Source: Geotalea uraniireducens Rf4
GTDB taxonomy: Bacteria; Desulfobacterota; Desulfuromonadia; Geobacterales; Geobacteraceae
Direction of reading: 5' to 3'
Assembly (NCBI RefSeq): GCF_000016745.1
Contig: NC_009483.1
Location: forward strand, 2,910,001-2,942,000
DNA: 32,000 nt
The position numbers and the translations under genes were made by a program. Below, piece by piece: positions 2,169 through 15,719 of the stretch. The first letter of the stretch is position 1. Each line of letters starts with the position of its first letter. The notes below the pieces were generated by a model. That model was not told the origin of the DNA. It did no database searches and worked only from the letters and a program-made list of their open reading frames with translations.

Positions 2169-2985
2169 AGTTGATTCTCTTGAAGTAATTGAGACTGTGC
2201 AAAGCGGCTTCTGCCGGCTTCACATCATAGGTATAAAGCTCCACAGAGCAGTATCCCTCGTAGGAATTGCCAGAGAGTAGCTTCACGATCTTCCCAAAGT
2301 CAATATCTCCGTCCCCCGGCAACAAGTGGTTGTGAACCCGGTCTTTGATATCTTCGAAGTGCATGTGCTTGACCGATGCTCCCAACGAATTTATCGCCTC
2401 GCAGATATCCTCATTGGTGCACTGCGCGTGTCCGATATCCAAGGTAGCCCAGAGGGAGCCTTGGTATAATGGGAGCAGTTTAGCCAGATGTTCCACCCGC
2501 TCGACCAACATGCCCATCTCATTTTCTATGAGCAGATTGACGGTGCCGTCGCTTTTGGCCAGGATGGTATCAATCGATTCCCTAAGGCGGCGGTATCCCT
2601 CTTCTTCGCTGCATTGCTCCGGAAGAATCCCCGAGGTGATGGTCACGTTCTTGGCGCCGATGGCGGTGGCCGCTGCGATTGTGCTCAGTATGAGGTCGAT
2701 CCTTTTCTGTCGGTCGTTTTTGCTGTCGCTAATCAGCGAAGGCTCGAAATCGATGTCGCTCATCAGGTCCTTCGCCCCGGTGTGGAGATTGACGACGCTA
2801 ATGCCGGTGGCTTTCAACTTGTCCGTCAAACTATGCAGGTACTTGTCGGAATGATAGAGCGGGTCCAGATGATTGCGGTGGCAGGAGATCTCGATCGCCT
2901 GATAGCCTACCTCATGCAGGTCATCCAGAGTTAGTTCCATATCGAACCGCCTGAATCCATTCGAGTTGTAGCAGAGCTTGAACAC
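2122..2985 (-). CDS. Sugar phosphate isomerase/epimerase, xylose-isomerase-like TIM barrel, paralogue 2
   Basis: 287 aa: MFKLCYNSNGF...LIENEMG...LDIGHAQC...HFEDIKDRVHNHLLPGDGDIDF. The pattern of metal-ligand-like E/D/H/E residues fits the AP-endonuclease-2/xylose isomerase-like fold. The GTG start at 2983-2985 shares one nt with the ACP TAG stop. Confidence 0.8.
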   Translation of the reverse strand: MFKLCYNSNGFRRFDMELTLDDLHEVGYQAIEISCHRNHLDPLYHSDKYLHSLTDKLKATGISVVNLHTGAKDLMSDIDFEPSLISDSKNDRQKRIDLILSTIAAATAIGAKNVTITSGILPEQCSEEEGYRRLRESIDTILAKSDGTVNLLIENEMGMLVERVEHLAKLLPLYQGSLWATLDIGHAQCTNEDICEAINSLGASVKHMHFEDIKDRVHNHLLPGDGDIDFGKIVKLLSGNSYEGYCSVELYTYDVKPAEAALHSLNYFKRINYDKCPEAYTASFVAV

Positions 2986-3233
2986 TACGCGGCACCTCCG
3001 GTTTGAGTCGTGATAAAGCTATGGATGGTATTGACACTCTCCAGGACCTTGTAGATCTGGTCATCGGATATGGTGACGTCGTACTTTTCTTCCAGCGATG
3101 ACGCCAATTCCAAGGCGTTGATCGAATCAAGGCCTATCTCCTCGTTCAAAGACACGGCGTCTGGGATTTCTGCCGGAGTTATGGAAAGTTTCAGCGAACT
3201 GACTATCAACTCTTTGATCTCTTCTCTACTCAT
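2985..3233 (-). CDS. Acyl carrier protein
   Basis: 82 aa from the internal ATG at 3231-3233, which overlaps the TGA of the upstream KS-beta gene (ATGA). MSREEIKELIV...EEIGLDSINALELASSLEEKYDV carries the D-S-(L/I) phosphopantetheine attachment motif. The 128-aa form in the ORF track is an N-terminal over-extension into the KS-beta gene. Confidence 0.88.
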   Translation of the reverse strand: MSREEIKELIVSSLKLSITPAEIPDAVSLNEEIGLDSINALELASSLEEKYDVTISDDQIYKVLESVNTIHSFITTQTGGAA

Positions 3234-4459
3234 ACAAAGACCTCCTTGGTTGTTAATAACACAGAGGAATAATTCCCCATCGGGCTGAAATTGTTGATGA
3301 TTGCCGACTTCATGCGATGCTCGGAAATGACAGTTGGCGGCGCTTCTGCATCCACCTTTTGGCCTGGCCATTCAAGAAGAGGTGCTCCTCTGTTCTTGAA
3401 ACCACATAGTGCCGATACCAGTTGGAATAAGCCAGCCGCGCCAAACGTTTCCCCCAAAGCACGTTTAAGAGCCGTCACTGGCAAGCTCTTTTGACCCAGT
3501 AACCTTCGCAGGGCGTTTCTCTCCAATCCATCCATGACCCTGTCGCCATTGGCATTGGCAGAGATGTATCCCAGCAATACGTCGTCCACAACTGGCACTC
3601 TGTCCAGGCAGTCCATTATTGTCTCAGCCATCATTCTTACACGTTTAATTGAAGAGCTTGATGATGATCGTATCGATATCTCTTCTATGAAGCCGAGGAT
3701 ATCAGCCCCCCTGTTCAGGGCAGAATCCGCATCCTCCAGAAGGACTGCAGCGGCCCCTTCACCAAGGCAAAGCCCTTGTTTTTGCGGAAGATTACTGCTA
3801 CTACTCTGGCCACTGCCGTCGACGGCGATTTCTTCCAAAAGGCCCATCCCCCACAAGGATTCGATGACAAAGGGCGATAATTCCTCTGCTCCAACGACGA
3901 GCATGGCGCGCGCCTTTCCGGTCACGATCGCGAGGCTCGCCTGAAACAAGGCATCTACCGAGGAGGACGCAAAGCTTGAGACAATGGTGTTGTAACCCTT
4001 CAAGCCTAATTCCAGGCAGATGGTCCCGACCGATTCGTTGGGAACGCACCTGCTGGCTTTTAACGGTGAGACGCGCCCAGTTGGACGGGACAAGGCGCTG
4101 CAAACGCTTTCTCTGAACACGGTCCCGGAGAGTGCCGTTCCTACCAGCGCACCGACGTCCTTTAATCCATGGCAAGCCATCCCGCTCATGTCCAAGGCTT
4201 CTTTGCCAGCCAAGGCCGCCATCTTACTCAGCTTGGTCGCGTAACGACTGGTGTTCGGGTCCAGCCCTTCGGAAAACTCCTGCTCGTCTGCTAGAGATAC
4301 CCGGACCCGGACGTTACTTCCTTGAGCGGGAGCCATGAGTGCGAAATGACCCTGGCCCTGTTCCACGTTCCTGGAAAAAACGTCGATCCCTTTCCCAAAA
4401 ACGGAGACCGAACCCATCCCAGTTATGGCGATCTTTTTATTCAATTCTGAAAAACGCAC
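3230..4459 (-). CDS. Beta-ketoacyl synthase-like protein lacking the catalytic triad (KS-beta / chain-length-factor-like partner)
   Basis: 409 aa with a thiolase/KS fold, collinear with the adjacent KS. The aligned catalytic positions are substituted: SSFASS versus SACTAS (Cys to Phe), ISANANGD versus CAHGTGT (His to Asn), and LGETFGAAG versus IGHTNGAAA (His to Glu). Confidence 0.8.
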   Translation of the reverse strand: MRFSELNKKIAITGMGSVSVFGKGIDVFSRNVEQGQGHFALMAPAQGSNVRVRVSLADEQEFSEGLDPNTSRYATKLSKMAALAGKEALDMSGMACHGLKDVGALVGTALSGTVFRESVCSALSRPTGRVSPLKASRCVPNESVGTICLELGLKGYNTIVSSFASSSVDALFQASLAIVTGKARAMLVVGAEELSPFVIESLWGMGLLEEIAVDGSGQSSSSNLPQKQGLCLGEGAAAVLLEDADSALNRGADILGFIEEISIRSSSSSSIKRVRMMAETIMDCLDRVPVVDDVLLGYISANANGDRVMDGLERNALRRLLGQKSLPVTALKRALGETFGAAGLFQLVSALCGFKNRGAPLLEWPGQKVDAEAPPTVISEHRMKSAIINNFSPMGNYSSVLLTTKEVFV

Positions 4460-4463
4460 TCGT

Positions 4464-5687
4464 CTACTCCGATGTCTTGGTTATGAGGACCGAACTACAT
4501 TGTCCTCCGAAGGCATAAGCGTTTGAGAGGCAGACCGATACTTCAGTTTTCCTGGCCTTGTTCGAGACATAGTCGAGATCGCAGGACTCATCCCTTACCT
4601 CAAGATGTATGGTCGGAGGCACCACACCAGCCTCTATGCTCAGCACGCAGGTCGCCGCGGAGATGGCTGCGGCTGCGCCATTGGTGTGCCCAATGCAGGA
4701 TTTAATGGAACTGACCGGGATCTGGTAAGCCTGATTGCCGAACAGTCGCTTAATGGCAGCTGTTTCTGCCACATCGTTAAGCTTTGTCCCCGTCCCGTGT
4801 GCGCAGATGTAATCGACATCATGGATGTGTTTTCCTCCCGACTCCAGAGCAATTCTCATCGCTTCCGCGGCAGAATGTCCTGACGGATCGGGAGCCGTAA
4901 TGTCATAGGCATCATTGGTCAAGCCGTAGCCAGTCAAAAACGCCTTTGCTCTCTTCTTTCGCTGTTTCAGGTGTACTTGTGCTTCCAGCACCAAGGCTGC
5001 GGCCCCCTCTGAAAGGGCCAATCCGCTTCTATTGTTGTCGAAGGGCCTGCACCCTTTCTTCTCCAATGCGCGGTAGGAATCGAAGCAGGCATACTCAAAA
5101 GGGGTTAGGATGTCTACTCCAACCACGATGGCCATGTCGCACAACCCGCAGGCGATCAGGTCATAGGCGTAGCCGATTGCGGCATTGCTGGCGGTGCACG
5201 CCGATATGTTGGTCAAAGCTCCATTGCTGATGCTGTATTTCCGCACCAGCGAGTCGGTCAGGGCATGGTGCGGATAAGCCAGCAATCGGCCGTAGTCGGC
5301 TTTGGTGAGCTCGGCCCTCCCCTGATGTTCCTTAACCGCGAGCAGATGCGATACTCCACCGACGGCAGAGGCTACCACCAGTACGCAGTTCTGCTTTCTC
5401 AGTTGCTCGACGGAAAGTCCGGCTTCCAGCAGCGCTTCATCCATGACCTGGGTTGCCAGGGCGAGGGGCAGCTCCTCCTTGCAGGGGGTCTCTCGTCCCG
5501 GAACCCAGCTGACCTCCCCGCCGCAATGGGTGGAAAAGCGCGACGTGTCAAAGGACGCGATTGGGCTGATACCATCGGTTCCATTGACGAGATTGGCGAA
5601 AAACTCCTCCTTACCCGTTCCGATGGGCGAGGAAACCCCTACTCCTGAGATAGCTACTTTCTTAAGGAGTTTCATGACTTGCCTCAT
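4464..5687 (-). CDS. Beta-ketoacyl-ACP synthase II-like (FabF-type KS-alpha) with an intact Cys-His-His triad
   Basis: 407 aa with NISACTASNAAIG (active-site Cys), CAHGTGTKLND, SSIKSCIGHTNGAAAA and a C-terminal NAYAFGGQCSSVLI. An alternative start is ATG 5675 (MKLLKKVAISGVG), preceded by GAGG 6 nt upstream. Only 4 nt separate it from the downstream KS-beta gene. Confidence 0.9.
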   Translation of the reverse strand: MRQVMKLLKKVAISGVGVSSPIGTGKEEFFANLVNGTDGISPIASFDTSRFSTHCGGEVSWVPGRETPCKEELPLALATQVMDEALLEAGLSVEQLRKQNCVLVVASAVGGVSHLLAVKEHQGRAELTKADYGRLLAYPHHALTDSLVRKYSISNGALTNISACTASNAAIGYAYDLIACGLCDMAIVVGVDILTPFEYACFDSYRALEKKGCRPFDNNRSGLALSEGAAALVLEAQVHLKQRKKRAKAFLTGYGLTNDAYDITAPDPSGHSAAEAMRIALESGGKHIHDVDYICAHGTGTKLNDVAETAAIKRLFGNQAYQIPVSSIKSCIGHTNGAAAAISAATCVLSIEAGVVPPTIHLEVRDESCDLDYVSNKARKTEVSVCLSNAYAFGGQCSSVLITKTSE

Positions 5688-6447
5688 GGATCATCTCTGC
5701 TAGCCCCTGATACTTCTGAAAAACCAAGTCATGGAAATAATCCCGGTCGCTCCAGGGAAACTGATCCAGCGTTCCCCTGGCAACGGAGAGTATCGCCGAC
5801 TGTATGATCTCTTTGGAGAGACCGGACTCCTTGAGCCGGTGACAGATCTTCCCGGCAGCCAGCATGATCTCTTCAGCCGCCACCAGGTTGACATTCCGGT
5901 ACAGGCTCTCGTCGCGGGTTAGGGTCACTTTCCCGATTTTGCCGAAGATGCTTGCCAGGTATCTGGCGTCCGCATCGCTTTGGGCATTCACAATGAAATG
6001 CCCGATGTCTTCTTTGAGTAAATTGTCTGCTTCTCCGATCACCTTCATGCTAGCTGGCCGGGCGTACAGAAAATGGGTTGACTGCAGGTCTTCCAGCATC
6101 ACCGCGGTGGAGAGGTTCACGAGCAGGATGGGCTTGACGAGCAAGCCATCGAGCATTTTCATGCAGGGAAGGACTTCGCCTTTGGGCAAGGCGATCAGTA
6201 CCGCTTTCGCTTCTGCCATATCCTGTGGGGCAGAGTACACTGCCACGTTAGGCGTTTGTTCCAGCTTTGCAGTCTTGCTGCGGTCGGCGTCATGGACGAC
6301 TATGCGGTAATAGGGGGACAGCTTATGCACCAAAAGATTCCCCAGCTTTCCTGCGCCCCAAATGGCTATAGTCTCGTCGGTAAATTCCATTTCTCTCATA
6401 TCCCCAGGTCTGCTCTGCAAGAGAGCGGTGCAGCGGTGTCGAGGCAC
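5662..6447 (-). CDS. NAD(P)-binding oxidoreductase, pyrroline-5-carboxylate-reductase (ProC)-like
   Basis: An N-terminal Rossmann motif (IAIWGAGKLGNLL) is followed by a helical C-terminal half. The start is uncertain. GTG 6447 lies 18 nt after the upstream stop and is preceded by AAGGGG. ATG 6399 and ATG 6390 would give a shorter, more typical N-terminus. Confidence 0.6.
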   Translation of the reverse strand: MPRHRCTALLQSRPGDMREMEFTDETIAIWGAGKLGNLLVHKLSPYYRIVVHDADRSKTAKLEQTPNVAVYSAPQDMAEAKAVLIALPKGEVLPCMKMLDGLLVKPILLVNLSTAVMLEDLQSTHFLYARPASMKVIGEADNLLKEDIGHFIVNAQSDADARYLASIFGKIGKVTLTRDESLYRNVNLVAAEEIMLAAGKICHRLKESGLSKEIIQSAILSVARGTLDQFPWSDRDYFHDLVFQKYQGLAEMIHEASHETP

Positions 6448-6465: not shown

Positions 6466-7770
6466 CTAATTTTGGTTGTTTTGATCGTTTCCGAACAGCA
6501 CTGCCTCGTAACCTTCCAGATCGAGAAAGCCATGACCGCTAAAGCAGGCCACGATCACCCTTTCCTTACCTTCCTCTTTGGCCTCGTATGCCTCATGAAA
6601 GACCCCTTTGATGGCGTGGCAGGTTTCCGGGGCCGGAAGAATCCCCTCGACCTTGGTGAAAATCCTCCCACAAGCAAATACATCGGACTGTTCATAGGCA
6701 ACCGCTTCCAGGTATCCCAGGTGCCTTAGCAGACTGACCAAGGGCGAGCCCCCATGCTGACGCAATCCCCCAACGTGCATCCTGGGAGGTACAAAGTCGG
6801 TCCCCAGTGTGTAGGCCTTGTTGAGAGGAGTGAGCTTGCCCGGATCTCCATGCTCATAGCGGTAAGTACCCTGGGTCAGACGGGGTGCCGCCGTCGATTC
6901 CACGGCCAGGAAGCGCAGTTTGTTCTGCAGTCGATCCTTAAGGAAGGGCATCATAAAGCCTCCCAGGTTGCTACCGCCGCCTACGCAGGCAATCAGTACG
7001 TCAGGCTTTTCGCCAGCCAGTTTCAGCTGTACCTCGGTTTCCAGGCCAATCACCGTATTGTGCAGCAGAGTGTGCATGGCGTTGCTGCCATTCAGATAAC
7101 AGATGCCTTCATTCTCCATGGCGAATTCCAAGGCATCGCTGATCCCGGAATTCACCGAGCCCGGGTGGTCCGGCATCTTTTCCAACAGCGCCCGGCCTGA
7201 CTTGGTATGACGGCTCGGTGATGGCAGGAATTCTGCGCCGAAGATCTGCGAGTGGATTCTCCGGTAAGGCTTCTGGTTGAATGACACTTCCGGCATAAAT
7301 ACCGTGCAGGAAAGGCCGTATTGAGCGCAGGCCAGCGCCACGGAAGTGCCCCACTGACCGGCTCCGGTCTGAGTGACCACCCCCTTGTATCCCTCTTTTT
7401 TCACATAGTAGGCTTGTGCCAGACTGGTGTTCGGCTTAAAACTCCCCGTGCAGAGAAGATCTTCCCGTTTGAAGTATATTCGCGCGGGAGTGTCCAGGTA
7501 TCTTTCCAGGTTGCGGGCGCGGTAAAGGGGTGTCGGCCTACCGATTACCAGGTATTTCTCCAAGATCTCTTCAGGGATGTCGAGCCAGCGCTCTTCCATG
7601 ACATCCTGTTCCTGGAGGGTTTTGGGAGTGATTTCCCTGATCTTCTGAATCCTCGAATCTGTTCCCTCAGGGTCTCTGGGAGGCGGCAGCTCTTCCGGCA
7701 AATCTTTCCGGCTGTTATACCACCTCCTCGGGACATCCTTTGCGTCTAAGCGTATGTGAGGACTATACAT
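6466..7770 (-). CDS. TrpB-like PLP-dependent enzyme (TrpB2 / trpB_rel type), paralogue 1
   Basis: FKREDLLCTGSFKPNTSLAQAYYVKKEGYKGVVTQTGAGQWGTSVALACAQYGL, VSFNQKPYRR, GGGSNLGG. The start is set at ATG 7770 (MYSPHIRLDAKDVPRRWYN) by alignment with paralogue 2 (MYMQEIRIDLPIEELPTKWYN). This start overlaps the upstream TAG by 8 nt. The ORF-track start at 7806 is probably an over-extension. Confidence 0.85.
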   Translation of the reverse strand: MYSPHIRLDAKDVPRRWYNSRKDLPEELPPPRDPEGTDSRIQKIREITPKTLQEQDVMEERWLDIPEEILEKYLVIGRPTPLYRARNLERYLDTPARIYFKREDLLCTGSFKPNTSLAQAYYVKKEGYKGVVTQTGAGQWGTSVALACAQYGLSCTVFMPEVSFNQKPYRRIHSQIFGAEFLPSPSRHTKSGRALLEKMPDHPGSVNSGISDALEFAMENEGICYLNGSNAMHTLLHNTVIGLETEVQLKLAGEKPDVLIACVGGGSNLGGFMMPFLKDRLQNKLRFLAVESTAAPRLTQGTYRYEHGDPGKLTPLNKAYTLGTDFVPPRMHVGGLRQHGGSPLVSLLRHLGYLEAVAYEQSDVFACGRIFTKVEGILPAPETCHAIKGVFHEAYEAKEEGKERVIVACFSGHGFLDLEGYEAVLFGNDQNNQN

Positions 7771-8971
7771 ATGCCGACCCCTGCTGGAGGTACTGTTGCG
7801 ATACATGATCAGTAAGCGTGCCCCACTGGACGAAGAAATCGTGGTTGGTAAAGTTGTAGGGCGACTTGAAATAGCATGCCAACTGAGTGAGAACCCCTTT
7901 CTCCCCCTTCTGATAGAAGAAGTCGGTCAGGCGGATCAGGTCAAGGATCAACGGGGCTGCAAGAATGGAATCCTTGCCCACCCAGTTGATCTTCATCGAC
8001 ATTTCCTCGCCGAGCCAGCCGCAGAAATCGATGTTATCCCAAGCCTCCTTGGCATCGCCTCTGGGCTTGTAGTAGTTGATCTTCACCTGGTGGTCGAAGT
8101 TGTCATAGCCCATGATCTCAGACAAGACGCCAGTCTTGGTCTCGATTTTGGTTTTCAGGTTTTCCGGGGAGTTGAGGACTTCGCCGTCCTTGTTGCCAAG
8201 GATGTTCACACTGTACCAGCCGGTCAACTTGAGTGACCGGGCCTTCAGCATCGGTGCAATGACCGTTTTGTAGAGGGTCTGCCCGGTCTTCCCATCCTTG
8301 CCGGCGACCACCACCCCTTTTTGATTCATGAGGTCCATGAGGGCGGGGATATCGACCGTGACAGACGGGGTGAAATTGACATACGGGGATTTGGTCATGA
8401 TGGCTGCATAGGCGTAGAGCATCCCAAAGGTGATCCGGCTACTGTCTTGATCAAGCCCACTTTCGAAGTTCTCGATGCTCTGATACTCCGGAACTCCCTG
8501 CACCTGGATAAATTTATCGGTGGAAGAGAGGTTGACCACGATGACATGGTCGAGGCCATGACGGCTCTTGAACTTCTCGATATCGTTGATCAACGCGGTG
8601 GTAATTGCCCTTCGGCTCGGCGCCTCGATGGCGTTCTCCCTGAAGCTGTCGATGATGCCGCCGTCGTTTGTTGCCGCCCCGGCCAAGACGACCACCTCTT
8701 GAAGCTTATTTTTTGTCGCCTCCAGGATTTTCTCTTTCACCACCTTGTGTTCCAATGCAGCGGTATAGAGGTCCTTTTTCACGATATCCCAGCCACCAAA
8801 GACGATGTCCTCAATTGGAACCAGGTTCAAGGCTTTGAGGGTCTGGTCGTTATCTGTGGTCAGATAACTTTCTTCCATAAGTCCCAGCTTCTTGGCAAAG
8901 GCTCCGGCGATGACCGTTGTTGAGATACTACCCAGTGCCCCAACGAATAATGCTCCGATTTTCTTTTTCAT
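7763..8971 (-). CDS. Inositol-3-phosphate (myo-inositol-1-phosphate) synthase family enzyme
   Basis: 402 aa, with an N-terminal Rossmann segment ALFVGALGSISTT. It closely resembles remembered archaeal/bacterial MIPS sequences: MLYAYAA...PYVNFTPS...IPAL...AGKDGKTGQTL.KT..APM, GWYSVNILGNKDGEVL, SILAAPLILDLIRL, YFKSP. Confidence 0.82.
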   Translation of the reverse strand: MKKKIGALFVGALGSISTTVIAGAFAKKLGLMEESYLTTDNDQTLKALNLVPIEDIVFGGWDIVKKDLYTAALEHKVVKEKILEATKNKLQEVVVLAGAATNDGGIIDSFRENAIEAPSRRAITTALINDIEKFKSRHGLDHVIVVNLSSTDKFIQVQGVPEYQSIENFESGLDQDSSRITFGMLYAYAAIMTKSPYVNFTPSVTVDIPALMDLMNQKGVVVAGKDGKTGQTLYKTVIAPMLKARSLKLTGWYSVNILGNKDGEVLNSPENLKTKIETKTGVLSEIMGYDNFDHQVKINYYKPRGDAKEAWDNIDFCGWLGEEMSMKINWVGKDSILAAPLILDLIRLTDFFYQKGEKGVLTQLACYFKSPYNFTNHDFFVQWGTLTDHVSQQYLQQGSAYV

Positions 8972-8999
8972 TTTCTGCTCCTTTAGTGTTTGATTAGTT

Positions 9000-10025
9000 T
9001 TATTTAACTTTCAAGATGGTCTTACACCCGCGGGTTACCACTGATTCGTCCTGACTATAAATCTGTGGGAATTCTCCAAGTTCGATCACGTTGGTGATCA
9101 ATCTCACTATTTCGCTACCTTTGCTGTCCAGAAGTTCGATCGCTTCCCTGAATTTCCCCGTTCCTCCGATGTTTCCGAAAATGTTAACCATTTTGCTGAC
9201 GAACAGGTCGGTGGAGAAGGAGACTTTCGGTTGCGAGAAGAAAAGGACGCTTCCACCCGGCTTTACCGTGTGGTTTATGACTTCTCCGACGTCAGAGAAG
9301 CCGCTGGTCTCCACGACCAGGTCAAATGAGCCTCTGCCGACGTGTGCCGGCATCAGTTTCATATCCATGGCAACGACCTGGTCCGCACCCAGTTCTCTGG
9401 CAATCTGCAGTCTTGTCTCATTGATATCCACGATCATCACCTTGGCATTGGGTTTACTCTTGATGATCATTGTGGCGAGGATGCCCAAGGTACCTGCTCC
9501 GAGAATGAGCACATCATGCGGATCCATATGAGCCGTGGCTTTATCGATCCCTTTCATCACAACCGCCGCAGGTTCAATGAGACAGGCGCTTTCGTCTGAT
9601 ATCTCACAGTCTTTCAGGGAATGCAGGGAGGACTGATTGACAATGACATAGTCAGCAGCAAACCCGTTTGCTGAGATGCCGTGCTTCTTGACAGAGGTGC
9701 AGAGGTCCTCGTTGATCTCTCTGCAGAACTGACACTGGCCGCAGTATATTGAGCATTCTCCGGTGACCCGCTCGCCCACGGAGAACTTCTGCACCCCTGC
9801 GCCTTTAGCGATAATTTCTCCCACCCATTCGTGGCCCGGCACCAGAGGATATACATGAGGTCCTTCATACCGGCCGGAGAACAGTTTCACATCACTGCCG
9901 CAGATACCAACATACCTGACACTTACCAGAACCTCGTGCTCTCTCAGAGTACGCAACTTCACAGGAGAGATAGTCAAGAGACCGGGGCTTTCGATCTTCA
10001 ATGCTCTGCCACCCGAAGTTAACAT
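9000..10025 (-). CDS. Zinc-dependent alcohol/polyol dehydrogenase (MDR superfamily, sorbitol/threonine-dehydrogenase-like)
   Basis: 341 aa with GICGSDVKL...PGHEWVGEI (catalytic Zn ligands), CGQCQFCREINEDLC (structural Zn Cys cluster) and ILGAGTLGILA (GxGxxG). The start overlaps the stop of the upstream TrpB-like gene by 7 nt. Confidence 0.88.
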   Translation of the reverse strand: MLTSGGRALKIESPGLLTISPVKLRTLREHEVLVSVRYVGICGSDVKLFSGRYEGPHVYPLVPGHEWVGEIIAKGAGVQKFSVGERVTGECSIYCGQCQFCREINEDLCTSVKKHGISANGFAADYVIVNQSSLHSLKDCEISDESACLIEPAAVVMKGIDKATAHMDPHDVLILGAGTLGILATMIIKSKPNAKVMIVDINETRLQIARELGADQVVAMDMKLMPAHVGRGSFDLVVETSGFSDVGEVINHTVKPGGSVLFFSQPKVSFSTDLFVSKMVNIFGNIGGTGKFREAIELLDSKGSEIVRLITNVIELGEFPQIYSQDESVVTRGCKTILKVK

Positions 10026-11332
10026 TGGTGACCTTCCTTGAACAAAATTGCCTCGTATCCGGCCAAATCAAAGAAACCATTGCCGCTCAGACAGAAAACA
10101 ATGACCCTATCTTCTCCCTCTTCCTTCGCCTCCAGCGCCGAGTCTATGGCCGCCTTGATTGCGTGACAGGATTCGGGTGCCGGCAGTATCCCTTCGCACA
10201 AGCTGAACAGCCTCCCGGCCTGAAACGCCTCCTCCTGGGAAAGTGCTGTTGCATCAAGTAGCCCTTCTTTACGCAGCAGTCCCACCAATGGTGACCCGTT
10301 GTGCTGCCGCAAGCCTCCTACGTGTATCCTGGGAGGTACGAAGCCTTGGCCAAGTGTGTAGGACTTTGTCAAGGGGGTGAGCCCCGAGGCGTCCCCGGCC
10401 CCGTATTCGTAGACACCTTTGGTGAGACGTGGCACCGAGTCCGACTCCGCTGCCAGGAACTGAAGGCTGTCCGGGTCCTTAAATTTTTCCGGCAGGAAGG
10501 GGAGCATCAAACCACCGCAGTTGCTACCGCCACCGACGCAGGAAATTAGCGTGTCAGGTTTCAATCCGGCCATTGCCAGCTGCTTCTTGGTTTCCAGGCC
10601 GATAATGGTTTGGTGCATCAGGACATGGGGGAGGTTACTCCCGGATACGTAGGCGTATTTCCCCTGATGCGCGAGCGCTGTTTCTATTGCCTCGCTGATT
10701 CCGGTGCCGATGGATCCGGGATGCTGAGGGTCGCTAAGCAGAAATGACTTTCCCGACTGAGTGAGGTTGCTTGGAGAAGGGTGGACCTCACCACCGCACA
10801 GTTTCATAAAATAGCGACGATACGGTTTCTGTTCGTAAGAAACCCTTGCCATGAATATCTTTGCACCGAGACCATACGACTGCGCCGCTATGCAGACAGC
10901 AGTCCCCCACTGGCCGGCTCCCGTTTCCGATATAAGGGCTTCAAAACCATCCTGCTTCGCGTAGTAGGCCTGGGCGATAGCCGAGTTCAATTTGAAGCTA
11001 CCGGTCGGCAGCACGTCTTCCCGCTTGAAAAAGATCTTGGCCGGAGTACCCAGATGCCGCTCAAGGGAAACGGCGCGCTGCAGCGGGGTAGGCCTGCCGA
11101 TCCTCAGATAAGCTTCCAGGACTTCACCGGGGATCGTTTCCCAACGCTTAGCTGAGTTGTCCTGCTCGTTCAACGCAACCGGACGAATGCGCCGGTTATT
11201 TTCGATAGTAGGAGTACCGTCAGCGGGATCCTTCGGTTCAGGTAGAATGGCAGGGAGGTCTGGCAGTGCGTTGTACCATTTGGTAGGCAGCTCTTCTATT
11301 GGGAGATCTATCCTTATTTCTTGCATGTACAT
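10019..11332 (-). CDS. TrpB-like PLP-dependent enzyme (TrpB2 / trpB_rel type), paralogue 2
   Basis: 437 aa with FKREDVLPTGSFKLNSAIAQAYYAKQDGFEALISETGAGQWGTAVCIAAQSYGL, VSYEQKPYRR and GGGSNCGG. It is collinear with the 6466..7770 product along the whole length. Confidence 0.88.
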   Translation of the reverse strand: MYMQEIRIDLPIEELPTKWYNALPDLPAILPEPKDPADGTPTIENNRRIRPVALNEQDNSAKRWETIPGEVLEAYLRIGRPTPLQRAVSLERHLGTPAKIFFKREDVLPTGSFKLNSAIAQAYYAKQDGFEALISETGAGQWGTAVCIAAQSYGLGAKIFMARVSYEQKPYRRYFMKLCGGEVHPSPSNLTQSGKSFLLSDPQHPGSIGTGISEAIETALAHQGKYAYVSGSNLPHVLMHQTIIGLETKKQLAMAGLKPDTLISCVGGGSNCGGLMLPFLPEKFKDPDSLQFLAAESDSVPRLTKGVYEYGAGDASGLTPLTKSYTLGQGFVPPRIHVGGLRQHNGSPLVGLLRKEGLLDATALSQEEAFQAGRLFSLCEGILPAPESCHAIKAAIDSALEAKEEGEDRVIVFCLSGNGFFDLAGYEAILFKEGHQC

Positions 11333-11350: not shown

Positions 11351-12208
11351 TTAATCCATCTCAGGTTTTGCTCTATTGTGCCCGGCCCACACCCTGTTGC
11401 TGATTTCAATCTTTTTCCTGACAGTCAGCCACGCTTTGGTGCTCAGGAATGAATCTTCAAAACGGTTCACCATCTCTTTGAACATCGCATAGGGGATGGT
11501 AAAGGAGAGCTCGTCGGTCTGGAAATATCTTCTGGGCCACGGGTCCCATCCCCCCAGAACGGCCTTATTCCGTCCCTTGGCTAAATAATGCAGTGGCCAG
11601 GTGACGAGGCTCCCGCAGGCGGCGCCCCAGGGAGAAACTACTACTTCGGGATCATCGGTCACAAAAGCCGCTAAGAGGTTAAGCCCGCAAAGTGCTTCCG
11701 GCCGCGCAAAAAACGCCACTAACTCCGGTTGTTCGTGTTTTTCGAAGAGTGTGAGGGGCTTGACCACACAGTATCTTCCATGGGCCTCTTTCGGGTCGAT
11801 ATGCTCAAATATTTGTCTAACTACATCAGGGGAATTGTACAGAAGCTCCCCCTCGCATTGGCCGGACAGCCCCGTTGAGAGATAACAAATGACTCTTTCC
11901 GCTTGAGGTTTGTTGTAGCCCAACCAGAAAGCGGCCCCCGGGCAGCCGTAATGTTCTGCAGAAGCCCAAACAACTATCTTTCTTTTCCTGGCCTTCCAGA
12001 CATTACACATGATGCAGGAAAATCCGTCATAGATAGCTTGCCAGTCGATTTCATCCCGCTCCTCCCTTTCACGGGTAGGGAGCTTCCCAACTTTTGGAGA
12101 AAGGCCTTCCCTTGGCTCGCTTTCCGTGTAAAAGATTCCAAGTGGTTCCTCTTCCAAACCAAGGGCTTCAAGGAGTCCAGTTGTCCTCTCAATTATTTTC
12201 GAGTCCAT
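11351..12208 (-). CDS. Hypothetical protein, possibly DUF169 family
   Basis: 285 aa with no signal peptide. The Cys-containing segment GFSCIMCNVWKARKRKIVVWASAEHYGCPGAAFWLGY resembles my recollection of DUF169 (COG2043) proteins. The assignment rests on memory only. It is tightly linked to its neighbours (gaps of 18 and 19 nt). Confidence 0.45.
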   Translation of the reverse strand: MDSKIIERTTGLLEALGLEEEPLGIFYTESEPREGLSPKVGKLPTREREERDEIDWQAIYDGFSCIMCNVWKARKRKIVVWASAEHYGCPGAAFWLGYNKPQAERVICYLSTGLSGQCEGELLYNSPDVVRQIFEHIDPKEAHGRYCVVKPLTLFEKHEQPELVAFFARPEALCGLNLLAAFVTDDPEVVVSPWGAACGSLVTWPLHYLAKGRNKAVLGGWDPWPRRYFQTDELSFTIPYAMFKEMVNRFEDSFLSTKAWLTVRKKIEISNRVWAGHNRAKPEMD

Positions 12209-12227: not shown

Positions 12228-12686
12228 TCAAACTTCAGTACCCGGCTCATTATTTTTTTGCAATGCGTCCATAAGACGCTCTTGAGCATTAATGATCAGC
12301 ATTACGTCTTCCTGTGTAATACTGTTTACCCACTCTTGATTCCAAGAGTAAAATTTGGCCATACATTTTGCCCAAATATTTTCACCTAATTCGGTAGTCT
12401 TTACTATTGTTACTCTCGTATCAGTTGCTGAGCGCGTGACTGTCACATAACCAAGTGACTGCAGTTTGCTAATAATCTTTGATATATTTGATTTTTCATA
12501 TAGCAGGCTTCCGACTAAGTTTTTTTGGCATGTCTCCCCAGCTCGTTGAATTTCATTCAGAACCACAAATTGTTGCTGATTAATTGAGAACTCTGAAACT
12601 ATTTTATCGCCTAATCTATGAAGACATGCCCCTATTATGAGGAAGTTCTTAACCAACACCGAAGAATATTTATTCATAGCCACCAT
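12228..12686 (-). CDS. MarR family transcriptional regulator
   Basis: 152 aa with a winged-HTH pattern: QQQFVVLNEIQRAGETCQKNLVGSLLYEKSNISKIISKLQSLGYVTVTRSATDTRVTIVKTTELG. The gene is visibly more AT-rich than the genes downstream of it. An alternative start is ATG 12677. Confidence 0.85.
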   Translation of the reverse strand: MVAMNKYSSVLVKNFLIIGACLHRLGDKIVSEFSINQQQFVVLNEIQRAGETCQKNLVGSLLYEKSNISKIISKLQSLGYVTVTRSATDTRVTIVKTTELGENIWAKCMAKFYSWNQEWVNSITQEDVMLIINAQERLMDALQKNNEPGTEV

Positions 12687-12919: not shown

Positions 12920-13384
12920 ATGGAAGAAGAACTCAGGAAACAAGCAGTCCAGCGCCATCTTGCAGGCGAATCACCCAAGGCAGTCTATACAAGCCTTGAT
13001 CGCTCCAAGAAGTGGTTTTTTAAGTGGTTGAACCGGTATCAATCTGGCGCGACTGACTGGTACAAGGAACACTCAAGAGCGCCACTTAAAAGACCGTCTG
13101 AACTCAGCATCGTAGATAAGGAGATTATTGTCTCCACCAGAAACCGCCTGGACTCGTCACCATTTGCACAGATTGGCGTTTCCGCTATCAAGTGGGAGCT
13201 GCATAAGCTGGGGTTACCGTTTCGCTCTGACAGCACCATTAACCGGACCCTGAAGCGGGAAGGACTCGTTAAAAAAAACGAGATATTCCCCCAAAGGGGT
13301 CGAGTACCCGTACTTTACCGAAGCCCTGTGCTGCAACAACATCCATCAGATGGATCTTGTTGGCCCCCGCTACATCAAGAGTGA
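12920..13384 (+). CDS. Transposase, N-terminal HTH part (upstream frame of a split transposase gene)
   Basis: MEEELRKQAVQRHLAGESPKAVYTSLDRSKKWFFKWLNRYQ... has an HTH-like N-terminus. The downstream frame is already open from the A8 run (13271-13278), where it reads ...KKTRYSPKGVEYPYFTEALCCNNIHQMDLVGP. Removing one A would fuse the two parts. Confidence 0.75.
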   Translation: MEEELRKQAVQRHLAGESPKAVYTSLDRSKKWFFKWLNRYQSGATDWYKEHSRAPLKRPSELSIVDKEIIVSTRNRLDSSPFAQIGVSAIKWELHKLGLPFRSDSTINRTLKREGLVKKNEIFPQRGRVPVLYRSPVLQQHPSDGSCWPPLHQE

Positions 13385-14090
13385 CGGCAGATTTTACTCG
13401 ATGAATGTGATTGATCTGTACAGCCATCGGGTCTTCATCGAATCAAATCGCACCAAGGAGGATGACAACATTGCACAGGGTTTGCTGCGCTGCTGGAAGT
13501 CAATGGGGCTTCCCGACTTCCTGCAAATGGACAATGAACTCAGTTTCCGTGGCAGTAACCGCTATCCGAGGTCACTTGGTCTGGTGCTGCGACTATGTCT
13601 CTACTTCGGCGTTCATCCTGTTTTTATCCCTGTTGCGGAACCGTGGCGCGATGGCGTAATAGAGAGCTTCAACGATACCTATGACAAAAAGTTTTTTCGC
13701 CGCCAGTGGTTCACAAGCTATTCCATGCTCAAGCGGCAAAGCAAGAATTTCCAGCAGTTTCACAACAAGAATCACCGTTACAGCTATCTCAAGGGGAAAA
13801 CGCCACTGGAGGTTATTGAAGCTGACAAATTCAAGCCCTTGACGCTGGGGCCAAATACCAGGATGCCAAAACTTGATTTTCTCCCGGACGGCACCATTTC
13901 GCTCATTAGATTTATCAGGAGCGATAGAACACTTAACATCTTTGGCGAAAAATTTGAGGTTTCAAAAGACCTCGTCTATTCATATGTGCGAGCCATGATC
14001 GTAACGGAAATTCACACGCTGCAAGTGTACCTGGGTGAAGACTTTGTTCAAAGCTTTGAGTACAGAATGCCTACAGAGTTCAGCTCATGA
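13350..14090 (+). CDS. Transposase, DDE (integrase-core/rve) catalytic part (downstream frame)
   Basis: DDE-like signature: HQMDLVGP (D), FLQMDNELSF (D), PWRDGVIESFNDT (E). This frame is +1 relative to the upstream part. Confidence 0.8.
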   Translation: MDLVGPRYIKSDGRFYSMNVIDLYSHRVFIESNRTKEDDNIAQGLLRCWKSMGLPDFLQMDNELSFRGSNRYPRSLGLVLRLCLYFGVHPVFIPVAEPWRDGVIESFNDTYDKKFFRRQWFTSYSMLKRQSKNFQQFHNKNHRYSYLKGKTPLEVIEADKFKPLTLGPNTRMPKLDFLPDGTISLIRFIRSDRTLNIFGEKFEVSKDLVYSYVRAMIVTEIHTLQVYLGEDFVQSFEYRMPTEFSS

Positions 14091-14474: not shown

Positions 14475-15719
14475 ATGAGTGATAAAACCCGCTGGCTGCT
14501 GCTTCTCTGCCTGACCCAGTTATTCATTATGCTGGTGTTCATCAATTACTCTGCCATCCTCCCCCTCCTGAAACAGGAATGGGGGATGAACAACACCATG
14601 GCCGGTTCGATTTTTTCCATCTACCAATTGGGCTACATAGCCTCGGGCGTCATACTCAGCGCCCTGACCGACCGGATCAATACCAAGCACATCTTCATTA
14701 TCTCGGCTCTCTGGTCAGGCATCGCCAACCTCCTCTTCGCCTTCTATGCCCATGATTATCTCTCCGCTATGCTGCTGCGGGCCCTGACCGGAATCGGCAT
14801 GGGAGGAACCTACATGCCGGGGCTGAAATTGGTGGCGGAGAAATTCGCTCCCAGTGAGCGTGGCAAGGCTGTGGGCATTTATGTCGGTTCGCTCGTGCTC
14901 GGGGCCTCCCTTTCCCTGGCAGTGACCGGCACAATAACATCCCTGGCCGGCTGGAGATGGGCCTTCATCGCCTGTTCCATAGGCGTATTTGTCGGCGCAG
15001 CACTTTCTCTTCTGGTATTCAAGGATTACCAGCCGATAGTGCATGCCAGGATTGAGCGCGGCTTTGAGGTGGAAATCATCAGAAACAAGCCCGCATTCCT
15101 GATGATCCTCGGCTACGGCTCTCACATGTGGGAGATGTATGGCATGCGCAGCTGGCTCGCACCATTTTTCACCGCCTCCCTCATCAGCCACGGCATTGCC
15201 GGGGGAATTGCCACCGGTTGGGCAGCCACTGCCGCTGCATTGATCATCGGTGTCGGCACTTTCTCCACCGCCATCACCGGCACCATTTCCGACAAACTGG
15301 GTCGGACGAAAACCATTACCCTGGTCATGTGTGGCAGCGCCACACTATCGTTTTTGTTCGGCTGGCTTGTCAATGTGAGCCCTTATCTGGCTTTTGCCGT
15401 GGGCATCCTCTATGGCTATCTGATCGTCGCAGAATCACCGGTTTTTTCCACGGGTCTCACGGAACTTGTTGCACCGGGCTACATGGGTGCAGCCATGGGA
15501 TTGCAGTCGCTGGTCGGCTATTCCCTCGGCATGGTGTCCCCCACCGTTTTCGGCTGGGCCCTTGATATGTGCCGGGGCTGGCAGCCGCTGCCGGGCGTCA
15601 GTGCTGACTGGGGAATCGCCTTTGCCACCGGCGGCCTCGGCGCCCTCACCGGGCCGGTTTTCATGTATCTCTTGCGTCGCTGTCCGGAGAGCAGGCGCAT
15701 GGCAGGTGGTAAGCAGTAA
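14475..15719 (+). CDS. MFS transporter
   Basis: 414 aa and highly hydrophobic, with about 12 predicted TM segments. An MFS-like loop motif LTDRINTKH follows TM2. Before the IS insertion it was divergent from the MarR gene. Confidence 0.85.
   Translation: MSDKTRWLLLLCLTQLFIMLVFINYSAILPLLKQEWGMNNTMAGSIFSIYQLGYIASGVILSALTDRINTKHIFIISALWSGIANLLFAFYAHDYLSAMLLRALTGIGMGGTYMPGLKLVAEKFAPSERGKAVGIYVGSLVLGASLSLAVTGTITSLAGWRWAFIACSIGVFVGAALSLLVFKDYQPIVHARIERGFEVEIIRNKPAFLMILGYGSHMWEMYGMRSWLAPFFTASLISHGIAGGIATGWAATAAALIIGVGTFSTAITGTISDKLGRTKTITLVMCGSATLSFLFGWLVNVSPYLAFAVGILYGYLIVAESPVFSTGLTELVAPGYMGAAMGLQSLVGYSLGMVSPTVFGWALDMCRGWQPLPGVSADWGIAFATGGLGALTGPVFMYLLRRCPESRRMAGGKQ

Follow-up and report, generated by a model that had tools for sequence, protein, structure and literature searches.

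Within a 32,000-nucleotide stretch of the Geotalea uraniireducens Rf4 genome (contig NC_009483.1, positions 2,910,001 to 2,942,000 of the forward strand; hereafter the window), two genes of a single minus-strand operon, copy A (6466..7770) and copy B (10019..11332), encode TrpB2-like proteins. We propose with moderate confidence that both are pyridoxal 5'-phosphate (PLP) enzymes of a monophyletic branch of the TrpB2 family that so far has no characterised member, and that is defined by Phe at the position of β-His86 and Gln at the position of β-Phe306, the Tyr of the indole sub-site in TrpB2 (the "F/Q clade"). On comparative grounds, their likeliest role would be β-substitution with a non-indole, cyclitol-derived nucleophile, at two distinct steps, and we give this reading as a whole about an even chance of being right. 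Within it, the assignment to the TrpB2 family, the substitutions that define the clade, the distance from trp genes and the recurring partner genes are demonstrated below, whereas the amino-acid donor, the nature of the nucleophile and the sequence of steps are inferred.

An initial sequence-only reading of the window had picked out two diverged TrpB2-like paralogues, and translation of the two open reading frames (ORFs) bears this out: copy A carries TGSFKPN, GAGQWG, FNQKPYRR and GGGSNLGG, copy B carries TGSFKLN, GAGQWG, YEQKPYRR and GGGSNCGG, and the two proteins are 56% identical. When scored with the family models that the same reading had recommended, both passed the TrpB2 models (TIGR01415: 568.2 bits for copy A and 557.9 bits for copy B, over a curated cut-off of 518.85; NF009057: 605.9 and 597 bits, over a cut-off of 366) and neither passed the TrpB1 model TIGR00263 (147.5 and 144.9 bits against 392.45). 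Homology to the TrpB2 structures 4qys, 6hte and 6hul is full-length (E 1e-121 to 1e-130); no serine/threonine dehydratase model scored above 51 bits, where the cut-offs exceed 300, and the matches were confined to about 100 N-terminal residues. Searches of the ESM Atlas returned only generic TrpB-like clusters for the window proteins. The start of copy A at 7770 is supported: its ATG (7770-7768) overlaps the stop codon of the preceding gene, a myo-inositol-1-phosphate synthase (MIPS) homologue, by 8 nt, a Shine-Dalgarno-like AGGGG lies upstream, and a 97%-identical orthologue of 434 aa agrees with it. For copy B, the true start is more likely the third codon, an ATG at 11326, because a GGAGGA found 6 nt upstream of it has normal spacing there and directly abuts the first ATG at 11332, and because both a 435-aa orthologue and the ESM Atlas record begin at the position matching 11326.

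When the top 120 database homologues, the two window proteins and this genome's housekeeping TrpB2 were aligned, two positions proved to covary, one just ahead of the PLP lysine and one just behind GGLR: His goes with Tyr in 65 sequences, and 58 carry Phe, together with Gln in 57 cases and Asn in one. His precedes the lysine in all 65 canonical neighbours, as it does in the solved and characterised TrpB2 enzymes (6hul, 4qys, 6hte), which read TGSHK and GGLRYHG; set against these, the replacement of His by Phe that had been noticed in both copies is confirmed. In a maximum-likelihood tree of 197 sequences rooted on the TrpB1 of the same genome, the F/Q sequences form a single clade inside TrpB2, with 68 members, a support of 1.0 and zero exceptions. 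Phe stands before the PLP lysine in 68/68 members, copies A and B included, and the position of Salmonella Phe306 (Tyr in TrpB2) is Gln in 67, again with both copies (GGLRQHG in copy A, GGLRQHN in copy B), and Asn in the remaining one. The Phe is therefore confined to one clade rather than scattered among ordinary TrpB2 enzymes, and it comes with a change of the indole sub-site. The observation that the sequence-only reading had named as one that would overturn it, a Phe common in tryptophan-forming TrpB2 enzymes, was thus not borne out. A chance substitution or a sequencing artefact was ruled out, since the Phe is fixed throughout a clade.

Compared with TrpB2, about 10 further clade-specific changes accompany His to Phe and Tyr to Gln, among them the hydrophobic-to-polar replacements Val to Asn233, Met to Ser324 and Leu to Ser230, and a new Arg302 that is invariant in the F/Q clade. 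Members were found in Streptomyces, Kitasatospora, Clostridia, Bacteroidota, Nitrospirota and one Geobacter relative, and a metagenome scan with copy A found two true relatives only, one near-identical contig and one Nitrospirota contig. In the literature searched, in which subscription journals are mostly outside coverage, neither a Phe-type TrpB2 nor a TrpB-like gene linked to a sugar-phosphate cyclase was found described, and the F/Q branch appears undescribed there. A library of representatives at 50% identity also contained more diverged TrpB2-like groups (P0129, P0141, P0147, P0158, P0230, P0161 and P0184) in which the residue preceding the PLP lysine is Phe, Tyr or Asp and GGLR-x-H is missing; the TrpB2 family therefore holds more unexplored branches than the F/Q clade.

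To relate these changes to known residues, equivalences were taken from an alignment with the TrpB1 of the same genome, counting from conserved motifs: the Phe corresponds to His86 of Salmonella TrpB, a residue that contacts the PLP cofactor, and the clade-wide Gln corresponds to Phe306. The ring of β-Phe306 is a component of the indole sub-site of the Salmonella enzyme, and C-C bond formation requires β-Glu109, which is hydrogen-bonded to indole N1 (PMC9512447). At this Glu109 position the two copies differ, with Glu in copy B (SETGAGQWG) and Gln in copy A (TQTGAGQWG). Among the 68 clade members placed in the tree, 61 have Glu, and the seven sequences with Gln (A-type, copy A included) form a subclade with a support of 0.985 near the base of the clade. 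In all, A-type proteins alter several positions that are otherwise universal in TrpB2 (E136Q, G209N and Q241N). Copy B groups with the partner copies of Nitrospirota and Desulfobacter, and a recent tandem duplication was ruled out by the 56% identity and the separate subclades of the two copies. Throughout the clade, copies A and B included, three elements are preserved, namely the PLP lysine, the phosphate loop (GGGSN) and the Ser that faces the pyridine nitrogen. Both copies likewise retain the GGLR Arg typical of TrpB2 and the GAGQWG Trp. Since lysine, loop and Ser are intact, both copies look catalytically competent as judged by alignment, with a second-substrate site that would differ from that of TrpB2; positions 233, 302 and 324 are candidate pocket residues, placed in the same way. 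A Phe before the lysine also occurs naturally elsewhere in the fold, as a threonine-dehydratase-like ORF of the same genome carries TGAFKIRGA.

The absence of tryptophan genes from the window, also claimed at the outset, held up: Pfam scans of 33 principal window ORFs (every non-nested ORF of at least 250 aa included) detected none of the trp families, and tblastn with TrpA, TrpC and TrpF of the same genome gave no match in the window, trpD not having been searched on its own. Elsewhere the genome encodes TrpB1 and TrpA, apart from the window cluster, and a third TrpB2 (638 bits) with AGSHKPN, TETGAGQWG and GGLRYHG, which lies between trpC and trpF, an arrangement that matches the Geobacter trp operon (PMC2700814). 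Each of six canonical TrpB2 loci sampled from Geobacterales genomes, this genome included, was found beside trpC and/or trpF, and five of five other F/Q-carrying genomes checked hold a separate TrpB1 and/or canonical TrpB2. That copies A and B are not the tryptophan synthases of the cell, as had been suggested from the window alone, is thus a conclusion we put at middling confidence; a different nucleophile remains the best-supported reading, on comparative grounds, because the Phe is confined to one clade, none of 24 F/Q loci lies near trp genes and ordinary TrpB genes are found elsewhere in every genome checked.

These loci come from a codon-pattern scan of species-representative genomes for H-x-GGLRQH-x-GS, which returned at least 120 loci, 24 of them true F/Q loci and about 96 chance matches in GC-rich DNA; the counts refer to this sample of 24 among the matches listed, with partners counted within the same 8-kb block. 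No trpA, trpC or trpF was seen at any of the 24 loci, nor in five extended regions. A homologue of the window's TIM-barrel protein occurs at 20 loci, and a sugar-phosphate cyclase, usually directly adjacent, at 15 (MIPS once, a 3-dehydroquinate synthase-like (DHQS-like) enzyme 14 times). By contrast, these partner genes were absent from all 16 canonical TrpB2 loci examined as a control.

Twelve Streptomyces and Kitasatospora loci among the matches share, whole or in part, one cassette that consists of a TrpB2-like protein, a DHQS-like cyclase, an S-adenosylmethionine (SAM) methyltransferase, a xylose-isomerase-fold TIM barrel, a TatD-like hydrolase, a PLP decarboxylase, a B12 radical SAM enzyme and a zinc-dependent alcohol dehydrogenase. 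Examples are L063 (1826-7998), L052, L031, L085, L029, L095 and L090. The cassette recurs, rearranged, in Clostridium sp. KNHs205 and in a Lachnospiraceae metagenome-assembled genome (MAG), and at least its TrpB2-like, DHQS-like and TatD-like genes are present in a Ferruginibacter MAG. Each of the two Clostridia clusters contains two F/Q copies, 21 and 14 kb apart and both of the Glu type, and the Clostridia decarboxylase passes the cut-off of the MfnA tyrosine-decarboxylase model (367 against 299 bits). In Clostridium sp. KNHs205 (L129:7593 to L130:16370; compare L131-L132 for the Lachnospiraceae MAG), about 29 kb of co-directional genes hold, besides the two F/Q genes, three CN-hydrolases, two HemN-like and one B12 radical SAM enzyme, several methyltransferases, two AMP-binding enzymes, a BtrH_N/DUF4872 protein, the MfnA-type decarboxylase, a SAM synthetase and GyrI-like/MerR regulators.

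The Geotalea operon comprises about 19 genes, all on the minus strand, and extends past the low end of the window. It is headed by a MarR-family regulator (12228..12686), whose position is kept in a Nitrospirota cluster, and by a DUF169 protein (11351..12208; Pfam PF02596, 136.9 bits), its first enzyme-sized gene. Then follow copy B and a Zn-dependent medium-chain dehydrogenase (9000..10025), the ATG of which overlaps the copy B stop by 7 nt and the best named relative of which is the scyllo-inosose 3-dehydrogenase IolM, below cut-off. Between this gene and copy A lies the MIPS homologue (7763..8971; NAD_binding_5 187.9 bits, Inos-1-P_synth 116 bits; PDB 7nwr 2e-80, 1u1i 8e-63). Just downstream of copy A is a ProC-like, that is pyrroline-5-carboxylate (P5C) reductase-like, NAD(P) reductase (5662..6447), with a weak Pfam F420_oxidored match; a profile of five cluster homologues matches P5C reductases best (5bse 7e-11, 2rcy, 2ahr, 3tri), and the F/Q clusters found in Nitrospirota, Clostridium, Lachnospiraceae and Paenibacillus also contain homologues, which in the first three adjoin the TrpB2-like gene.

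Further along the operon, a ketosynthase (KS, 4464-5687), a chain-length-factor-like (CLF-like) KS partner (3230-4459) and an acyl carrier protein (ACP, 2985-3371) make up a module (2985..5687) resembling type II polyketide synthases (PKS) or fatty acid synthases. The KS-like gene begins 4 nt after the KS gene and scores much lower on the FabF model (119 bits, against 317 for the KS), so that the two make a pair of the KS/CLF type, which has an ACP and a ligase of its own; matches of the module to the cispentacin proteins AmcF, AmcG and AmcB are sub-threshold, that of the CLF-like protein being a weak one to AmcG. A xylose-isomerase-fold TIM barrel (2122-2985), an AMP-forming ligase identified by family scan (750-2168) and a second TIM barrel that runs beyond the window edge (1-753) follow, the two TIM barrels having sub-threshold IolE/IolO matches. 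Outside the window, the operon continues with a flavoprotein, UbiD, a DUF362-ferredoxin, a CMD protein, an MIase-like protein and a major facilitator superfamily (MFS) exporter. The UbiD-family decarboxylase just beyond the low end (L008:8632-11911) has the hydroxyarylic acid decarboxylase VdcC as its nearest named relative and is flanked by the flavoprotein, which is FMN-reductase-like, and the DUF362-ferredoxin; UbiX was not seen in the stretch read. At the other end, an insertion-sequence transposase on the plus strand (12920-14090; two overlapping ORFs with HTH_23 and the integrase core rve) separates the MarR gene from a divergently oriented gene for an MFS transporter (14475-15719).

Judged by its occurrence, the cluster is a rare, horizontally moved unit, because it is syntenic in a Nitrospirota MAG contig, with the same genes in near-identical order and 33-75% protein identity, and because, among 239 genomes of the same order, the copy A/B pair is found in this genome only (0/238 others). 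The other genomes of the order have a single canonical TrpB2 with about 50% identity, of the His/Glu/Tyr type in five of five inspected.

According to our proposal, copies A and B would each form a PLP-bound aminoacrylate as TrpB2 does, presumably from L-serine or O-phospho-L-serine; O-phosphoserine is the substrate used by TrpB2 enzymes (Busch 2014, cited after PMC11917138). The aminoacrylate would then be added to a non-indole nucleophile, giving a new β-substituted alanine. This nucleophile would most likely be a carbocyclic enol or a phenol made on site from a sugar phosphate, and would be supplied by the MIPS cyclase, the Zn dehydrogenase and the IolE-like TIM-barrel enzymes, so that the three-carbon unit of serine or O-phosphoserine would end up in a tyrosine- or 3,4-dihydroxyphenylalanine-like amino acid. 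The two paralogues would most likely catalyse different additions, copy B with its Glu to activate an N-H or O-H nucleophile and copy A without this residue. The ProC-like reductase, UbiD and the ligase/ACP/KS module would later process the product, before export. We propose the addition of a serine unit to a cyclitol-derived ring because the same logic recurs across clusters: a sugar-phosphate cyclase, redox or dehydratase-type enzymes, a TrpB2-like protein and often a tyrosine-type decarboxylase. A precedent comes from the tyrosine synthases (TyrS) engineered from Thermotoga TrpB (PDB 8egy), in which the TrpB scaffold adds the side chain of serine to a phenol carbon; the laboratory-evolved variant TyrS4, which works on phenols, carries E105G at the catalytic Glu (PMC13174591), a change that parallels Glu to Gln in copy A. 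TyrS is however a laboratory product derived from a TrpB1, whereas the F/Q changes are natural and occurred in TrpB2.

Several observations weigh against this proposal. Both proteins still score as TrpB2, and the catalytic Glu, the GGLR Arg and the GAGQWG Trp persist in copy B and in most of the clade, so that the nucleophile may be of the indole type. The substituted residues were placed in the pocket by alignment and from the literature, and not from a structure of copies A or B; the locus counts come from a sample of F/Q loci, and Bacteroidales and Isosphaeraceae contexts have no recognisable cyclase in the 8 kb seen. The two copies might still be tryptophan-type synthases dedicated to the cluster, for which they would make tryptophan itself or, starting from a substituted indole, a substituted tryptophan; the UbiD and the flavoprotein of the cluster could act on an aromatic heterocycle. 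The TIGR01415 and NF009057 scores, the Glu109 equivalent of copy B and of 61/68 clade members, and the retained Arg and Trp would all fit. Nevertheless, we find this unlikely: the indole sub-site Tyr/Phe is a Gln clade-wide and further hydrophobic positions have turned polar, trpA, trpC, trpF or another indole source is near none of the 24 loci, ordinary TrpB genes are also present in every genome checked, and attack by indole C3 requires a Glu that copy A does not have. In a far more speculative variant, which we consider a long shot, the cluster would itself build an indole-type ring from glucose-6-phosphate and serine and then a tryptophan analogue. MIPS and the dehydrogenase would yield an inosose, a cyclic ketone, the enol carbon of which copy A (lacking Glu) would alkylate with aminoacrylate; ring closure would give a P5C-like bicyclic imine to be reduced by the adjacent ProC-like reductase, the two IolE-like dehydratases and the flavoprotein would aromatise it, UbiD would remove the 2-carboxylate, and copy B (with Glu) would add a second serine unit to the resulting hydroxyindole. 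Were this true, a TrpB relative would be used twice, for the pyrrole ring and then for the amino acid.

Other alternatives concern the division of labour and the chemistry of the two copies. TrpB enzymes are dimers, and copy A might instead serve copy B as a regulatory or catalytically inactive subunit within a heterodimer, with one reaction instead of two. All four sequences checked among the six others of the A-type have a Glu-keeping partner on the same contig (Nitrospirota, Desulfobacter, a 10.7-kb and a 78.8-kb contig), and the A-type changes hit positions otherwise universal in TrpB2. The Glu to Gln change of copy A, so far always accompanied by a Glu-keeping partner, would fit two steps or a heteromer alike, two options that the sequence-only reading had left side by side. 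We nonetheless regard a heterodimer as improbable, since copy A retains the PLP lysine, the GGGSN loop and the Ser facing the PLP nitrogen, and since the paired copies of Clostridium and Lachnospiraceae are both Glu types, an arrangement that speaks for two reactions. Fold-type II relatives such as cysteine synthases carry out heteroatom β-substitution, and a thiol, amine or hydroxyl of a pathway intermediate may likewise be the nucleophile here, yielding an S-, N- or O-linked alanyl compound with no C-C bond. A polar clade-specific pocket with an invariant Arg302 would suit a polar or charged partner, for instance a cyclitol phosphate, but the present data fit C-alkylation equally and the MfnA-type tyrosine decarboxylase of the sister cassettes fits an aromatic amino acid better, and we therefore hold such a product to be doubtful. 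As for the idea that the copies are eliminating enzymes, dehydratase-like or lyase-like rather than synthases, the S-F-K motif is indeed that of threonine dehydratases, and the dehydratase-like ORF of the same genome has TGAFKIRGA. It is nevertheless most improbable, since the dehydratase models remain far under their cut-offs and match the N-terminal part only, and since the COMM-domain region and nucleophile-side residues, not needed for elimination, are conserved in the clade.

Set beside known systems, the F/Q proteins share with the O-phospho-L-serine-dependent, indole-scavenging TrpB2 enzymes of Sulfolobus/Saccharolobus and Thermotoga the PLP lysine, GGGSN, the TrpB2-specific insertions, the GGLR Arg and the GAGQWG Trp, but their genes lie in biosynthetic clusters, away from trp operons, and copy A is without the catalytic Glu. 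With TrpB1 of the Salmonella α2β2 complex they would have in common the fold-type II PLP β-replacement via aminoacrylate, and it is from this enzyme that the residue roles used above (Lys87, Glu109 and Phe306; PMC9512447) are taken; both copies fail TIGR00263, however, and no TrpA partner is nearby. Tyrosine phenol-lyase has a different fold. The KS, CLF-like protein, ACP and AMP ligase of the window are reminiscent of the type II PKS-like machinery of cispentacin and coronafacic acid (AmcB, AmcF, AmcG, AmcH), although the window scores lie under the curated cut-offs and those pathways have no TrpB-like, MIPS or IolE-like enzymes. Finally, the sister cassettes hold side by side the three kinds of protein found in the ebo operon (PMC5133447), namely the TatD-like EboB, the sugar-phosphate cyclase EboD and the xylose-isomerase-like TIM barrel EboE. 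This likeness is one of protein kind: EboA, EboC (UbiA) and EboF were not seen in the sister cassettes, and the Geotalea cluster has MIPS in place of the DHQS-like cyclase.

Current pipelines annotate F/Q proteins as TrpB-like or as tryptophan synthase, which can mislead metabolic reconstruction, and the present analysis flags a widespread biosynthetic cassette made of a cyclase, a TIM barrel, a TrpB2-like protein and a decarboxylase. TrpB has been heavily engineered to make non-standard amino acids, and changing its nucleophile took long directed-evolution campaigns. If our proposal is true, nature would already have remodelled the nucleophile pocket in one TrpB2 branch, which would offer such engineering a ready starting point, together with a new enzyme activity.

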